This document shows, one piece after another, positions 6,019 to 59,213 of a stretch of DNA of 64,000 nucleotides. The position numbers were made by a program, and so were the translations under genes. The DNA lies in the IMG/VR virus record IMGVR_UViG_2825118518_000002, positions 32,001-96,000 of that record. One strand, written 5' to 3'. Within the stretch, counting starts at the first letter, position 1; the number at the start of each line of letters is the position of its first letter. The notes under the pieces were generated by a model, which did no database searches, was not told the DNA's origin, and saw only the letters and a program-made list of their open reading frames with translations. The stretch is from a virus. Taxonomy: Duplodnaviria > Caudoviricetes.

Positions 6019-7188
6019 ATGATGGTTCCGAACGTCATTGGCTTTGGAGGGAGCGGTCACGAATTCACCGCCGACGATCTGCTGAACCTCGAAGTCGAGG
6101 CGCTGGAGACAGCTGCCGGCTCCGAGGACGTGATTGTGCGCATCACCGACGGCCTGCGACTTCTGACGACGCGACAGATCCTTGCTCAAACGCTCTCGGC
6201 TGCCGGCACCCTGACAGGAACGGAGAAAGTCGTCCTCAGAACCGCTTCCGGTCTCGTCGAGACGTCGCTCGCACTCATTCGATCATTCGTATCGCTTGAT
6301 CCCACCAAGATCCGCATCAAGAAGCGGCTTCTTACACGCCTGTCGGATGGCGGCGATCACTGGATGTGGACGGCCTCGGGCACAGCGAACCGTCAGATCA
6401 TCCTCGATATCGTCAAGGCGAACTTCCTGACGGCTGCAGAGCAGTCCCTTGCGATCGCCGAGCACATCGATTGCAAGCTGTGGGTCTGCTCGGGTGGCGG
6501 TGGTGGGGGTTATAACCATGCTCAAGCATTCGGCGGACATCCAGGCAACCTGACGATCCGCGAGTTCAAGCTTTCGGACGTGCCGACGGCTTCATGGTCA
6601 TTTCAGGTCGGCGCAGGCGGATCCGGCGGCAACGTGGGCGGAGCCAGCTATTTTGGTCCTAATGGATCTGTCTGTCACGCATTCTCGCAGGGCGGCTGGC
6701 CGGGCGGCCAAGGCACGGCCAATCAGGGCCTTTTCTACGAGCTGATGAAGTCTTACGGGGCTGATCGCGTCCTCGCGACGCATCTTGGAGACACGGCCAA
6801 CGACTGGACGTCGAACGCACCTCATGGATGGGTCGGCCCCGGTGGTGGTGGCTCTCAGATCTGGGCGCTTCGCCGCGGCGGAAACGGTTCGATGGGATCC
6901 AAAGTCAACTTCCGGCAGGGATCTGTCGAATCCTCGACGGTTTCCACCTCACGGACGTACGACGCACCAAAAGGTCAGGACCACAATCCTCTCTACGCAG
7001 ATTCATGGGGCGCAGGCGGCGGAGTTGGCGTTGGAGCCACCGTCGGACCTAACGGCCCAGGAGCTGGTGGCTTTCCGGGCGGTGGCGGTGGCGGATCAAA
7101 CACCACCAACCAAGCGCAGATTGCCTGGGGGGCGGCTGGCGCCATCAAGATTCAATTCTGGCTGACAACGATTGAGGTGACCGCATGA
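6019..7188 (+). CDS. Glycine-rich fibre protein
   Basis: 389 aa, repeated GGGGGG, FQVGAGGSGG, GGFPGGGGGG motifs. Confidence 0.75.
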   Translation: MMVPNVIGFGGSGHEFTADDLLNLEVEALETAAGSEDVIVRITDGLRLLTTRQILAQTLSAAGTLTGTEKVVLRTASGLVETSLALIRSFVSLDPTKIRIKKRLLTRLSDGGDHWMWTASGTANRQIILDIVKANFLTAAEQSLAIAEHIDCKLWVCSGGGGGGYNHAQAFGGHPGNLTIREFKLSDVPTASWSFQVGAGGSGGNVGGASYFGPNGSVCHAFSQGGWPGGQGTANQGLFYELMKSYGADRVLATHLGDTANDWTSNAPHGWVGPGGGGSQIWALRRGGNGSMGSKVNFRQGSVESSTVSTSRTYDAPKGQDHNPLYADSWGAGGGVGVGATVGPNGPGAGGFPGGGGGGSNTTNQAQIAWGAAGAIKIQFWLTTIEVTA

Positions 7189-26316: not shown

Positions 26317-26952
26317 TCAGGATGTCGCCGTCTCTGTTTCGGGTTCAACCACAGACGTTCGCCTCCTAGCTGAAGGGCCTGCACGCTTCAGGAGATCGAA
26401 CAGATAATAGATGTGTTCATCGGTCAATGCTATGCCAGCATACCAATCGCGATGGCCTTGAGCTTTGAACAAGGCGCCACTGACCTCTGGCCAGACACGG
26501 TGCAGGGCATTCAAACTTCCGTGGTTGTTGTGTTTCAGAGCATTGGCAAGACGGTGGACTCTAGCGAAGTCTGCCGGGATCTCGATATTCATTTCCCTGG
26601 CAGCTGCTTCCAATTCTGCGTGCTTGCCGTCCGAGAGCTTGCAGAATACCCGGATCTTTCGTTCCCAGTAGTGATAGATGGCCATAGCGAAAGCCTTCCT
26701 GAGTTCTCCATAGGCCTCCCCAAGCGTCTCCATCTTATAGTTATAGACATCGGCGGGATCGAAGAGCGTAGAGCCATCTTCGGCGAACTCTAGCTGGTTT
26801 TGGTACTCCCCGGATTGCAAGAGCGCTTCCCACGCTTCGGTTTCCTCTCGGCTTTTAGCCTGTATTCCTTTCGCTGCAGCGGTGAAGCTATCGCGGAGAC
26901 AATCGATGCCCGATTCATACATCCATCCGTGCACGCTGAAATTAAGCTTCAC
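26317..26952 (-). CDS. HEPN-like all-helical protein
   Basis: GTG start with GGGAGG RBS; AIYHYWE and RLANALKH motifs. Confidence 0.55.
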   Translation of the reverse strand: MKLNFSVHGWMYESGIDCLRDSFTAAAKGIQAKSREETEAWEALLQSGEYQNQLEFAEDGSTLFDPADVYNYKMETLGEAYGELRKAFAMAIYHYWERKIRVFCKLSDGKHAELEAAAREMNIEIPADFARVHRLANALKHNNHGSLNALHRVWPEVSGALFKAQGHRDWYAGIALTDEHIYYLFDLLKRAGPSARRRTSVVEPETETATS

Positions 26953-27082
26953 GCAAACCCTCCCCGTATCTTCAGATCGTCGGCACCGAGCCGCGTCATC
27001 TGAAGAACACGACATTTCGCAAGTCAATAAGCGAGGATCTCGAATCTTGCAGGGGCCTGGGCGACGATCACCCAGCTCATCC

Positions 27083-29456: not shown

Positions 29457-29672
29457 TCAGTCGTTCTTTGCCAGATACGCGGTTATAACCGGATAGCGTT
29501 CGTTAAGACTTTTGCGGATCGCGTCTTCGTCGCCCGCCATGAGCTTAGCCTCACGCCGGATTGCTTCGATGTCTTCGCGCCTCCGCAGCATGTTGCTGAC
29601 ATCTTTGGCGTCGATGCGCTTGCCCCAGAAACCGCCGCCGTTCTTTGCTCCGGAGTGTTCGGTCTTGATTGC
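29457..29672 (-). CDS. 71-codon reading frame without start codon (AIKTEHSGAKNGGGFWGKR...)
   Basis: Translated by hand; protein-like, followed by terminator; in-frame TGA four codons upstream; absent from ORF track. Confidence 0.55.
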   Translation of the reverse strand, partial: AIKTEHSGAKNGGGFWGKRIDAKDVSNMLRRREDIEAIRREAKLMAGDEDAIRKSLNERYPVITAYLAKND

Positions 29673-29694
29673 CGGATATCCTCATGGAATTAAA

Positions 29695-29825
29695 CGGGGG
29701 CGCTCTACCAGACTGAGCCACCTCGAAAGGAAGGGATTCGAACCCCTGACCTCCCCCGCCGCGTTGCGCTACCAGACTGCGCCACCATCCTGAGACAGGC
29801 CGGATTCGAACCGGCGACCACCGCG
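29695..29825 (-). ncRNA. Tandem circularly permuted tRNA-like elements
   Basis: Two units, each: anticodon-stem 3' strand, variable loop, TTCGAAT T-arm, loop-capped acceptor stem, AGTCTGGTA D-arm, anticodon-stem 5' strand. Confidence 0.88.
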
Positions 29826-29844
29826 TCAATTTGATGATAGTCGA

Positions 29845-32370
29845 TCAAGCTACCTGCGGCAAGATCGGATGGTTCGTATCCCGAGCCAATAGCTTGGTGC
29901 GCAGCGTCGTATAATCGACCGTCTGAACGCTTACAGCGCCGTCGATCGCCATCGAGGCGATAACGCCCGCCGCCTCGCCCTTGAGGCCGCCGGTGGGCTC
30001 CAGACGCCCCATGTACCAGCAGAGGATCGTGCACGAGGATGCCCAAGGAACAATGACATTGGTCTTCGTTGCGGCGTCTGGAACGATCTCCTCAAGAGGG
30101 ACAGGGGCAATCTTGTCGGCGCCAGCCACAAGCGAGCCTGGAACGCTGCCCTGCGTATAGAGCAGGCCACCAGATGCGACCTTCCACGGCGGGTGCTTGT
30201 CGCAATCATATGAGGTGACAGCCACCGTCTTGTCGGAGCGGAGGGCCGAACCGTCCGTCTTGCAGTAGTCCTGCGCGGTCGAGACATAGCCCGTATTCTT
30301 GAGCCGCCAGATCGGGTCGCGCTGATACGGGCGGTTAGGCCAGAAGAGCAGCCCACCGGGGCCGGGGTCAAGGAAGGTTCCAGCATCAAGACCAAAGCCT
30401 TGGAACTGCGTTACCAGTGTCCCAGGAATGCGGCTGTCACCGGAATTTGCGTGCCACCAGAACCACCCGAGCTGATAATCCCTCAGATCGTCGATGACGG
30501 CAAGCTGCGCTGCCCGGTTCGCTGCGGTCGCATAGCGATAGCCGCTGCCTGGCAAGTCGGTCGACAGGCCACCGGAACCGTTGTTCACGTCCATCTTGTT
30601 CGTCGAGCCGCCGACCGCGAACTGCAGGATGGTCGTGGTAACGGCCGGATTGCCGATCGTGACGCTGGGGTTGAGGACATAGGCGCGGGCCGCTGTCTCG
30701 TAGCGCAGGGAATTATAATTCCGATGTGGGTCCATTGTGGTGACAGGAACCAAGCGCGCCGGGTCGGTCGTCATCGCAAGGCGGTAGTTCATGCTTTCGA
30801 TCGATGGATCAACACCATCGACGGTAAGGCCGGGAAGCGGCATTTCGCCTTGGATGTCAGGCAGCAGGCCAGATGCCTGAACGCCATCCGTGATGTAGGG
30901 GCTGATATCCGAGCCATAGGGCTTGCTGAGAGCGCTTGATCCCTTGTAGCCGTTGTTGGCTTCCGAGCCGGCGCCGGCCGCCTCGCTGCCCGTGAATGTC
31001 GGAATACCGGACGATTTGTGGATGTATTCCCCGTCATAGTCCGCGGCGATGAACTGCCGAGCCGTGAAGGTCCGCCCGTCGTTGGTCTTCAGCGCAGTGT
31101 CCGTGGTGCCGACAGAGGTGATGGACTGGATGCCGGTGGAGAAGTAGACCGGGATATCCTGCCCGAGAATAAGCGTGCCGTTCGTCCGGGTCGGGTCGAG
31201 CATCCGGCGCACACCCTGGACGAACTGCCAGCTTTCAACAGAGTTGCCGGTCTGTGTGTTCGTGTCGGCGCGGTTGATGATGGTGCTGTTGACCCACGAT
31301 GTGAGGTCTCGATAGAGTCCCTTGAGCGCCGTGAAGTTGTAGCAGTCCACGTAGGCCAGGCCCGACGCCGGCATGCCGCCGATATCCCAATCGGTCTTTG
31401 CCAGATCGTCGAGAACGAGGGCAACGGTCTTGCCTTCCTGTTTGGCGGCATAGGCAGCACAAACAGCCGTCCAGCTCGCGCCGTAAACGAGAACGTCATA
31501 ATCGGCCGTCGTCGGGGCATAGCCCGCAGCATAGGTGTCCACATACCCAAAGCGGATTTTGTAGTAATAATCCAGCAGCGCCGCGCTGATTTCCCGGCAT
31601 TGCGCATCGTTCAGGGTCACGTCGAAGATGGCGAAGAGGCCGCAGTCCTTGGTTGAAAGTGCGCCGCCATTGATGCCGCCGAGGTGAATTGTCGGGTTGG
31701 TCGCGGGAGAGACATAGGTGGGTGACGGGGCTTCGCGGGTGATGCCGAAGGTATCAAGGCTATTCGGGCGGATGCTGTGCATGCCTTGGCCTGGGGTGAT
31801 CGTCGTCGAGGTCGAGACGTAGTTCGTAGCCTGCAGGCGCGCGTTGAACTTGCTGGACGCGTCTTTTGTGTTTGCCCCAATACCATCACCGCCGGCCGTC
31901 TGTGCGCCGAATTCACCACTGCTGCCGCCTGTCGAGGTCCGCGAATAGTAGAATATGGTGAACTGCCCCTGAGAGAAGCTCTGAAGCCCAATGCCGGTGT
32001 TGTATTTTGCAGTAGAAGTCCACCCGCTCCAACGGTCGTTTGCCGTATAGGTCGGCACGCCTGCACCGGTCAGCGTGAGGTCGTTCGTGCCTGGGTGGAA
32101 CTTGTTCAGTCTGCTATTGATCTCAGTCGGCGTATCCGGGGTGTAGAGGGCTTTGGCATTCGTCATGCTTATGCCAGCGCCCTTGATGCGCGTGATCAGG
32201 CGATCGTAGGCCAGCTTCTCCGAGCGGCGCATGGTGATGCCCTGCGCTGCCTTGGCCGTCTCCAGCGTTGTCGTTTCAGATTGGAACGTGAAAGCAGGAA
32301 GCGATGCACTGCCACCACCTCCGCCCAACTGGTTGGTGATGCCGAGGCTGAGTGCTAACGTCGTGCTCAT
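29845..32370 (-). CDS. Probable virion fibre: lectin-like domain fused to FAD-dependent oxidoreductase fold
   Basis: LALSLGI-G5 N-terminus; YDVLVYGA..AVCAAYAA, GGMPASGL, DYDGE, RLEP...GEAAG motifs. Confidence 0.75.
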   Translation of the reverse strand: MSTTLALSLGITNQLGGGGGSASLPAFTFQSETTTLETAKAAQGITMRRSEKLAYDRLITRIKGAGISMTNAKALYTPDTPTEINSRLNKFHPGTNDLTLTGAGVPTYTANDRWSGWTSTAKYNTGIGLQSFSQGQFTIFYYSRTSTGGSSGEFGAQTAGGDGIGANTKDASSKFNARLQATNYVSTSTTITPGQGMHSIRPNSLDTFGITREAPSPTYVSPATNPTIHLGGINGGALSTKDCGLFAIFDVTLNDAQCREISAALLDYYYKIRFGYVDTYAAGYAPTTADYDVLVYGASWTAVCAAYAAKQEGKTVALVLDDLAKTDWDIGGMPASGLAYVDCYNFTALKGLYRDLTSWVNSTIINRADTNTQTGNSVESWQFVQGVRRMLDPTRTNGTLILGQDIPVYFSTGIQSITSVGTTDTALKTNDGRTFTARQFIAADYDGEYIHKSSGIPTFTGSEAAGAGSEANNGYKGSSALSKPYGSDISPYITDGVQASGLLPDIQGEMPLPGLTVDGVDPSIESMNYRLAMTTDPARLVPVTTMDPHRNYNSLRYETAARAYVLNPSVTIGNPAVTTTILQFAVGGSTNKMDVNNGSGGLSTDLPGSGYRYATAANRAAQLAVIDDLRDYQLGWFWWHANSGDSRIPGTLVTQFQGFGLDAGTFLDPGPGGLLFWPNRPYQRDPIWRLKNTGYVSTAQDYCKTDGSALRSDKTVAVTSYDCDKHPPWKVASGGLLYTQGSVPGSLVAGADKIAPVPLEEIVPDAATKTNVIVPWASSCTILCWYMGRLEPTGGLKGEAAGVIASMAIDGAVSVQTVDYTTLRTKLLARDTNHPILPQVA

Positions 32371-59015: not shown

Positions 59016-59213
59016 GACGAGACGACTTCCACGTCTCTCCGGGTATAGCGCTCCCGGTGCTTCTGGACGCCGGGGAGGCCGAAGCCTCACGCGCAACGCG
59101 CTCCCGAACGATTAATGCAATTGGCACCGCCCACCAGATCCTACATCAATACCCCACGTAGAACGCAAGGCTTCGGTTATGGCAGGCGGTAGGCTACACC
59201 CGCGTGTAGCTGT

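Follow-up and report, generated by a model that had tools for sequence, protein, structure and literature searches.

A putative prophage RNA built from two permuted, tRNA-like modules

We describe an RNA element predicted from 64,000 nucleotides (nt) of prophage DNA, positions 32,001-96,000 of the provirus record IMGVR_UViG_2825118518_000002 (114 kb, CheckV 100% complete). This whole stretch is referred to as the window, and its numbering is used throughout. On the minus strand, at 29695-29825, two tRNA-like modules abut one another behind a tail gene. In each module a T arm is followed by a loop-capped acceptor hairpin and a D arm, and a short stem closes the unit; we term the pair the twin element. 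An earlier note on this DNA had transcribed the sequence and set the unit limits at 29825-29760 and 29758-29695 on the minus strand, and our re-reading agrees with it exactly. The parts are listed below, with bit scores from RF02553, the Rfam model of the bacterial Y RNA YrlA.

29760-29825, minus strand: unit 1 of the twin RNA (sequence; RF02553 positions 23-85, 36.9 bits; covariation)
29825-29821 and 29764-29760, minus strand: closing strands of unit 1
29820-29816, minus strand: variable loop of unit 1
29815-29799, minus strand: T arm of unit 1
29798-29785, minus strand: capped acceptor hairpin of unit 1
29784-29783, minus strand: U8 and G9 of unit 1
29782-29766, minus strand: D arm of unit 1
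29765, minus strand: A26 of unit 1
29759, minus strand: single G that links the two closing stems (0-4 nt in other twins, often A-rich)
29695-29758, minus strand: unit 2 of the twin RNA (sequence; RF02553 positions 23-85, 31.4 bits; covariation)
29758-29753 and 29700-29695, minus strand: closing strands of unit 2
29752-29748, minus strand: variable loop of unit 2
29747-29731, minus strand: T arm of unit 2
29730-29721, minus strand: capped acceptor hairpin of unit 2
29720-29719, minus strand: U8 and G9 of unit 2
29718-29702, minus strand: D arm of unit 2
29701, minus strand: G26 of unit 2
29689-29694, minus strand: T-rich tail TTTAAT directly after unit 2 (family conservation)

Both units have a T stem of 5 base pairs (bp) with the T loop TTCGAAT and a 4-bp D stem with the D loop AGTCTGGTA, and both variable loops are 5 nt long (TGGTC in unit 1, AGGTC in unit 2). 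The acceptor hairpin consists of 5 bp capped by TCAG in unit 1 and of 3 bp capped by TTCG in unit 2. Read base by base, the closing stems measure 4 bp in unit 1 and 6 bp in unit 2; a closing-stem script returns longest runs of 4 and 7, its segments including the linker G and a flanking T. Among the members of the window's own family, conservation starts at the closing stem and ends after TTTAA, which is kept in all four (the sixth base in three of them), and the sequence beyond differs. The TTTAAT tail is possibly the 3' end or a terminator tract of the predicted RNA.

Comparative evidence for the fold

The fold was evaluated against twins from other viral loci. Sixteen of 20 units, from eight loci, were aligned with MAFFT; the four excluded carry acceptor-hairpin inserts of 50-57 nt or 29 nt. 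Across this alignment U8, A14, the GG of the D loop, and TTC.A of the T loop are invariant, which upholds the earlier claim that the elbow residues are kept. The same holds for the two G-C pairs of the T stem nearest its loop (columns 15-25 and 16-24). The scored structure comprised 18 pairs, namely those of the closing stem, the T stem, the four outer acceptor pairs, and the D stem. Bases pair in 91.3% of the cells, as against at most 50.4% when the partners are slid by 1-3 columns. Double-sided changes are found in 12 of the 18 pairs, a value that none of 500 shuffles reaches, and the covariation score of 0.528 (0.131 in shuffles) is likewise reached by 0 of 500. By helix, the proportion of paired cells is 100% for the T stem, 100% for the D stem, 98.4% for the acceptor, and 70% for the closing stem, where register shifts between units lower the figure. 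The D stem and the T stem are nearly invariant, and the acceptor and closing stems vary in length. RNAalifold independently predicts the T, acceptor, and D helices.

In a register-free comparison of the closing stems, the longest complementary run of cognate strands averages 4.7 bp and reaches at least 4 bp in 18 of 20 units; for strands taken from other loci the average is 3.28 bp (Mann-Whitney p = 5e-7, for units that are not fully independent). In two relatives of the window twin, L071 and L421, the closing stem CGCGG/ACGCG reads CACGG/ACGTG and CACGG/CTGTG, respectively, and in L421 the D stem of unit 1 goes from GCGC/GCGC to GCTC/GAGC. These changes, all within the window's own family, are compensatory. 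The acceptor hairpins of the twins range from 2-3 bp up to about 10 bp, and many carry stable tetraloops (TTCG, TCCG, TACG, GCAA). Decayed tRNA debris, an outcome that the earlier note had allowed for, is contradicted by this covariation of the stems across the 16-unit alignment.

The two units of a pair also differ from one another in a consistent manner. At position 26, 8 of 10 first units have an A and 9 of 10 second units a G, and in most first units the closing stem is topped by a mismatch or an extra base. Such consistent differences indicate that the pair arose once and that both halves are under selection. The suggestion that the flanks close both heads into a single RNA is not supported: shuffled sequences pair as well as the flanks do (z = -0.11), and three close relatives (L071, L421, and the X10 contig) do not conserve the 5' flank.

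Two hints bear on expression. A 200-nt contig from a rhizosphere metatranscriptome spans exactly 29690-29827, its own sequence on both sides being unlike the flanks of the window twin. Of its four changes, two make the loop TCAG a TTCG and a third gives T-A in place of a T.G pair, and these three fit the predicted fold; the fourth is in the D loop. The second hint is a promoter-like site:

29834-29862, minus strand: sigma-70-like promoter match, TTGCCG, 17 nt, TATCAT (one found against 0.2 expected in shuffles)

From this site, transcription would begin at roughly the first base of unit 1. It is not kept in L071 and is probably a chance match, because its -35 part lies in conserved tail-gene codons.

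Other twins and the prophage setting

A pattern in which a T loop is followed at short distance by a D arm matches 26 viral loci, and the converse pattern, in which a T loop comes 14-22 nt after a D arm, matches more than these 26; counts from the listed matches are lower bounds. The first, strict version of the pattern had returned ordinary tRNA pairs only (10 of 10) and was rejected. Twins were called by a script as two complete units with 5-24 nt between the end of a D stem and the start of the next T stem. At least 12 loci, including the window, carry a twin by this script. After copies were collapsed (L127 = L167 = L185; L175 near-identical to L182), at least nine distinct viral loci lie beyond the window: L071, L108, L127, L130, L175, L189, L254, L281, and L221. 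The last was added by eye; its unit 1 scores 53.3 bits on our own unit covariance model, which also scores tRNA-array junctions and therefore cannot count twins alone. A metagenome scan added at least two contigs, L421 and L415, the latter with the same sequence as L127. The gap from the first D arm to the second T arm is 16-19 nt in twins (18 nt in the window) versus 22-23 nt in ordinary tRNA arrays, and among the matches listed no third unit adjoins any pair. As a criterion for the class we propose two permuted modules on one strand, separated by a 16-19-nt gap and each with its own closing stem of 3-6 bp.

L071 and L421, the close relatives of the window twin, also follow the same tail gene, and both were reached by the pattern only and not via tail-gene synteny. 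Taken together, twins occupy five or more gene contexts that are unrelated. In L108 the twin has Mu-like gpI and gpT head genes on its two sides, and in L175 it follows a portal gene and a weak prohead-protease match. The twin of L254 comes after an SSB gene and that of L281 after a gene whose acidic C-terminal tail we read as SSB-like, without a Pfam match; in L189 the twin lies on the opposite strand, antisense, between Mu F-like and gpI genes. In eight of nine twin loci the element lies on the same strand just after a gene; the antisense placement in L189 shows that a twin can be a gene of its own and not merely part of an mRNA. The earlier note had assigned the window twin to the late transcript, a tie that is not a necessary one, given that other phage twins follow an SSB gene, sit inside a head module, or run antisense to it. 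No protein is common to different twin lineages, either within 4 kb or across whole records.

A BLAST search against deposited phages returned three short tRNA-like matches and no homolog. A comparison of twin frequency between viral and metagenome contigs was dropped as confounded, and small word shares in sequencing runs X2-X15 were discarded as no evidence of habitat; the contigs of X2 and X4 hold only other T-plus-D units, joined by 9-17 other letters.

The neighborhood of the window twin, including open reading frames (ORFs), comprises the following features, to which we add a second structured RNA of the same prophage.

29845-32370, minus strand: upstream gene, 841 amino acids (aa), with an FAD_oxidored-type domain (Pfam PF12831, 97.2 bits)
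29457-29591, minus strand: 44-aa ORF downstream of the twin, not conserved beside the twin in L071 and L421
29431-29412, minus strand: terminator-like hairpin downstream of the twin, not conserved beside the twin in L071 and L421
26317-27027, minus strand: 236-aa ORF in a lower-G+C accessory region, 2.7 kb downstream of the twin
59125-59191, minus strand: DUF3800-VIII RNA (Rfam RF03075, 59.2 bits against a threshold of 40.2)

The 841-aa gene is the last of a tail and lysis block, and unit 1 starts 19 nt past its stop codon. The host type is Rhizobium, given that Rhizobium sp. J15 (G001) holds a copy of the gene at 91% identity. The same block includes an SASA esterase and a lysozyme-like protein, with weak, below-cut-off family matches, and a tail-fiber-like ORF that is assigned by reading and has no family match. 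Homologs of the 841-aa tail gene occur at 11 viral loci and in one Rhizobium genome. Two of these 12 loci (L021 and L025) are cut and were excluded; none of the other 10, with readable downstream sequence, carries the twin, and the slot after the tail gene is occupied there by terminators or other inserts. At about 6540-6700 of one viral locus (L015), the slot after the homologous tail gene holds a different tRNA-like element with a 13-bp terminal stem, a long internal region, a canonical T loop, and no Rfam gathering match.

Further downstream of the window twin, where G+C is lower, lie a coiled-coil 157-aa ORF, two divergent Arc/RHH-type regulator genes, and ORFs of no assigned family. The 236-aa ORF has no Pfam, PHROG, or PADLOC match. 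Among the ESM Atlas clusters nearest to it, one is auto-named RiboL-PSP-HEPN (score 0.93), and an R-x6-H stretch is present; the ORF may encode a phage-borne HEPN-type RNase. The neighbors of the twin give no PADLOC defense match under E = 0.009.

Family assignment and Ro60

At permissive thresholds, RF02553 aligns each unit over model positions 23-85 of 114 only. The scores of 36.9 bits (unit 1) and 31.4 bits (unit 2) do not reach the family gathering threshold of 69; the corresponding E values are 9.8e-07 and 3.6e-05 on a 321-nt stretch and, for the full 114-kb record, 8.2e-8 and 3.0e-6. Neither unit aligns to model positions 1-22 and 86-114, which make up the Ro60-binding stem. The order of T arm, capped acceptor stem, and D arm is that of YrlA, and the helices are backed by covariation. 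The earlier description of the element as a double tRNA-elbow RNA in the YrlA-type T arm/acceptor/D arm permutation is therefore borne out by this alignment together with the covariation. The Rfam comparison that the earlier note had proposed gives a below-threshold YrlA match and not a standard YrlA with a linked Ro60: the 114-kb record lacks a Ro60 gene in searches with TROVE and vWA_Ro60. Its claim that the RNA is undescribed also stands for Rfam 15, which has no family for a twin tRNA-core RNA, and for the literature searched, in neither of which we found a description; the YrlA list in the supplements of Chen et al. 2014 lies outside this coverage, and a stemless twin is possible there.

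The twin is neither a tRNA nor a permuted tRNA gene nor a two-piece tmRNA. ARAGORN reports no tRNA across the whole window, and the anticodon arm and 7-bp acceptor stem with free ends that define tRNA (RF00005) are absent. The sole Rfam tRNA match at gathering thresholds (33.3 bits, 29791-29723) was rejected as chimeric, its D arm coming from unit 1 and its T arm from unit 2; it has 12 nt in place of the expected 17-nt anticodon arm and two mismatches in its 'acceptor'. The tRNA model implies a trans acceptor pairing in which the 5' strand comes from unit 1 and the 3' strand from unit 2; judged by eye, neither L130 nor L127 keeps this pairing. The model of two-piece (permuted) tmRNA, RF04321, gives 9.8 bits against a threshold of 47. 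Annotation pipelines overlook the twin element or miscall it as a tRNA, the latter because the Rfam tRNA model passes its threshold on the chimeric alignment.

By the criteria of Chen et al. 2014 (PMC4201824), a YrlA is encoded within about 4 kb of a Ro60 (rsr) gene and bears the Ro60-site motif GNCGAAN0-1G on a long stem formed by both RNA ends; Rhizobium etli is among the first YrlA hosts that they name. Three of the four testable YrlA features are missing from the twin element: the Ro60 stem with its motif, linkage to rsr, and a score at the gathering level. The element would work in the manner of the YrlA tRNA-like module, from which it probably descends.

A vWA_Ro60 match is found in none of 10 twin-bearing records; in contrast, three of five phage records with a single unit inside a long outer stem have one (one match above the cut-off, two just below). 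The Ro60-site motif is absent from the 50-nt upstream flank of the window twin and occurs upstream of only one of nine twins, that of L071 (GACGAAAG, 30 nt upstream). An enclosing stem is lacking in eight of the nine twins tested. Searched over 151 Rhizobiaceae genomes, RF02553 returned rsr-linked YrlAs, tandem-tRNA false positives, and one divergent single. Short-spacer singles in metagenomes are a mix of canonical YrlAs and tightly packed tRNA genes; among the matches listed, the Ro motif lies upstream in 12 of 114 of them, versus 6 downstream.

The host type has Y RNAs of its own. Rhizobium sp. J15 carries two full-length YrlA matches (82.2 and 63.5 bits), 13 nt apart, in which the 5'/3' stem and a GNCGAA-type motif are present. 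They lie directly after a Ro60 gene (vWA_Ro60, 73.3 bits), which Pfam TROVE missed genome-wide and only vWA_Ro60 recognized, and before an RtcB-like ORF identified by reading its translation. The prophage element resembles the effector half of the Y RNA family used by this host type, without the Ro60-binding half. At the J15 locus (L027, 1501-1850), the order is rsr, two full YrlAs, a third partial Y-like repeat, and the RtcB-like ORF.

Possible roles and relation to known systems

Overall, we consider it highly probable that the element is a real, selected twin module RNA that is independent of Ro60. Each module would fold as the upper body of a tRNA, with the T and D arms joined at the elbow, a capped acceptor-like hairpin, and a short stem replacing the anticodon stem. 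Selection would act on the elbow and on the D and T stems, as in YrlA, and would leave the lengths of the acceptor and closing stems free. In the preprint of Wang et al. 2018 (10.1101/312249), YrlA has conserved T and D stems together with an acceptor, an anticodon stem, and a variable loop of differing sizes, and the authors expect a tRNA-binding protein as the YrlA effector, one that would recognize the elbow and be to some extent sequence-specific. The conservation pattern of the twin matches that of the YrlA effector-binding domain described there.

The twin may present, in duplicate, the effector-binding face found on a Y RNA or on a tRNA body to a host protein that recognizes the elbow, and it would be neither cleavable in an anticodon loop, nor chargeable, nor tethered to Ro60. 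We propose a competitive decoy role because the twin has no anticodon loop, CCA end, or Ro60 tether; taken by itself, this role is a tentative suggestion, somewhat short of probable. Candidate targets would be a tRNA-directed (anticodon) nuclease, PNPase, and the effector of YrlA. The earlier note had also thought of a decoy, for defense nucleases or toxins that target tRNA, or alternatively of an element that may interact with the ribosome. Hughes et al. 2020 (PMC7790460) raise the possibility that YrlA's tRNA-like domain competitively inhibits an anticodon nuclease, phage Y-like RNAs bind host PNPase in gel shifts (PMC12135203), and PNPase contacts the effector module of Yrn1 (10.1101/312249). 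The best explanation as a whole, on which we find the balance about even, is a self-standing phage noncoding RNA with two YrlA-type cores that acts as a Ro60-free competitive decoy. On balance doubtful is a wider version, in which phages of several lineages carry a 'dominant-negative Y RNA': a two-headed decoy for the YrlA effector, a tRNA-directed defense nuclease, or PNPase, neither cleaved nor recruited, that would shut down a pathway of RNA surveillance or abortive infection in the infected or lysogenic host, with the non-permuted look-alikes described below as a second topology of the same trick.

What bacterial Y RNAs do with their tRNA-like domain, and which partner binds it, has been a question since 2014 (10.1101/312249). 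The twin is only that domain, doubled and Ro60-free, and would make a clean bait for finding the partner. Its design suggests that the partner is important enough in the conflict between phage and host to be targeted by phages. If the decoy reading is true, an RNA-based countermeasure would join the phage replies to tRNA-directed defenses, which to our knowledge have so far been replacement tRNAs and repair enzymes.

Several observations weigh against this explanation. The twin RNA is a predicted transcript, and its binding partner is likewise a prediction; the RNA-library contig may derive from DNA and shows neither strand nor ends. Single-sequence folding of the window element misses the unit 1 fold, and the folding energies are unremarkable (z = 0.23, -0.10, and 1.08), so the support for the fold comes from comparison and not from thermodynamics. 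Five twin-bearing records (G153, G154, G156, G157, and G160) share head and terminase genes and are not independent lineages, leaving about five independent settings and not ten. The RF02553 search of 151 Rhizobiaceae species genomes found no twin, and a DNA search of 401 Rhizobiaceae genomes, 400 of them scored, found none except for one marginal partial match (G329, E = 9.9e-6); the twin is rare in Rhizobiaceae. Eight of the 10 twin-bearing records are incomplete by CheckV (14-87%; two are 100% complete), so a Ro60 gene could lie off-contig, and the Ro60 of the host remains available. A perfect 13-bp outer stem surrounds the L281 twin (z = -5.6) and is the sole significant one; with this stem and the L071 motif, some twins may have a Y-RNA-like stem. 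The L281 element (2675-2845) is a low-G+C twin with 7-bp acceptor stems and may be a three-way-junction version of the design.

The twin could instead be a cis-acting element of the phage mRNA, either a stable tRNA-like block to 3'-to-5' exonucleases at the operon end or a processing site, which we regard as unlikely. A position on the same strand just after a gene in eight of nine loci would suit this role, as would the place of the window twin, 19 nt past the last tail gene and with a T-rich tract behind it, and the proposal that a tRNA fold shields Y RNAs from nucleases (Chen et al. 2014, PMC4201824). The L189 twin, however, is antisense to a head operon, related prophages have a plain terminator hairpin in the same slot, and a nuclease block needs neither a strict pair of non-equivalent units nor invariant elbow residues. 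Acceptor hairpins of 2-5 bp are, moreover, poor substrates for RNase P; Chen et al. 2014 observed cleavage solely with a 7-bp stem (PMC4201824).

Decidedly unlikely, in our view, is a two-headed Y RNA that acts through the host Ro60 (Rsr) by way of a divergent Ro60 site in the flanks or closing stems. Related Rhizobium hosts do encode Rsr with YrlAs, Rsr-linked YrlAs are often tandem, and the 13-bp enclosing stem of L281 and the motif GACGAAAG 30 nt upstream of the L071 twin are of the expected kind. Yet the flanks of the window twin do not pair beyond chance (z = -0.11), eight of nine twins have no enclosing stem, the motif occurs in one of nine upstream flanks, conservation in the family is limited to the closing stem through TTTAA, and the YrlA alignment covers positions 23-85 only.

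We think it improbable that the twin is a precursor, cut in its acceptor loops and given CCA to yield split tRNA-like molecules with free, perhaps chargeable ends. The YrlA of M. smegmatis is cut by RNase P and receives CCA (PMC4201824), and 7-bp acceptor stems exist in L281 and in unit 2 of L254. Most acceptor hairpins, however, are 2-5 bp long with stable tetraloop caps (3 bp in unit 2 of the window), and their length is unconserved.

Type III toxin-antitoxin systems use tandem RNA repeats as antitoxins, and the twin might similarly inhibit a nuclease of the same phage, for example the HEPN-like 236-aa ORF at 26317-27027, which lies on the same strand 2.7 kb downstream and which the Atlas places near RiboL-PSP-HEPN clusters (0.93), a lead only. 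We judge this very improbable: no protein is common to the twin loci within 4 kb or to whole records of different lineages, the 236-aa ORF matches nothing in Pfam, PHROG, or PADLOC, and divergent Arc-like genes lie in between. Non-functional debris, whether decayed tRNA genes or attachment-site remnants, would suit a variable accessory region near the prophage end, a unit 1 D arm identical to that of tRNAs read as tRNA-Pro in phage arrays, and the rarity of the twin in Rhizobiaceae, but it is hardly credible in the face of compensatory changes in all variable helices, the recurrence of the two-unit design across unrelated phages and positions, and loop-capped acceptor hairpins that simple truncation of a tRNA gene cannot give.

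Among known RNAs, the permuted tRNA genes of Cyanidioschyzon merolae and the alpha-proteobacterial two-piece tmRNA encode the 3' half before the 5' half. They contain either an anticodon loop or a tag reading frame, and processing turns them into working molecules with free acceptor ends. The twin has the same 3'-half-first order; unlike them, it has no anticodon loop or tag and no free ends.

With ordinary tRNAs and phage tRNA arrays (RF00005) the twin shares the canonical T loop, the D loop, U8, the AGGTC variable loop, and the positions of the Levitt pair. It differs from them in having 12 nt for the 17-nt anticodon arm, no free acceptor ends, no ARAGORN call, and acceptor strands that pair within one unit across a tetraloop. 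The junction of two tRNA genes mimics one unit, a false positive already flagged by Chen et al. 2014 (PMC4201824). In a metagenome contig (L358, 902-1018), one permuted unit runs into an apparent 5' part of a normal tRNA with an anticodon arm; this arrangement may be a hybrid of a permuted unit and a tRNA.

Many phage contigs (L203, L213, L239, L259, L283, and L287) carry non-permuted tRNA look-alikes of 62-66 nt, with a normal acceptor stem, D arm, and T arm, 14-20 nt from D arm to T loop, and no anticodon arm, which Rfam scores as tRNA at 32-51 bits. Like the twin, these are phage tRNA cores without an anticodon arm in Ro60-less genomes; unlike it, they have the normal order and free ends and are single. 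We are aware of no published account of these look-alikes, although no literature search was directed at them. In one such contig (L239, 1462-2022), a ROOL RNA (390.8 bits) lies beside an anticodon-less look-alike and a tRNA.

The closest likeness is to the Y RNAs. Tandem YrlA arrays beside rsr and rtcB, as in J15, likewise place several modules head to tail on one strand. Each of their modules, however, belongs to a full Y RNA of 110-135 nt with a Ro60 stem, about 13 nt from the next and next to rsr, whereas the modules of the twin abut, are stemless, and have no rsr. YrlA itself (RF02553; Salmonella, Mycobacterium) also occurs in phages. It has the same order of T arm, loop-capped acceptor, and D arm, closed on the anticodon-stem side, the same D stem (GCTC/GAGC) and T arm consensus, and the same conserved elbow with variable sizes of acceptor, anticodon stem, and variable loop. 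The twin lacks the Ro60-binding stem, the GNCGAAN0-1G motif, and a linked Ro60, scores below threshold, and sets two modules back to back with a 0-4-nt linker where YrlAs are separate genes with long stems of their own. Overall, the twin design looks like a variant of bacterial Y RNAs carried by phages.

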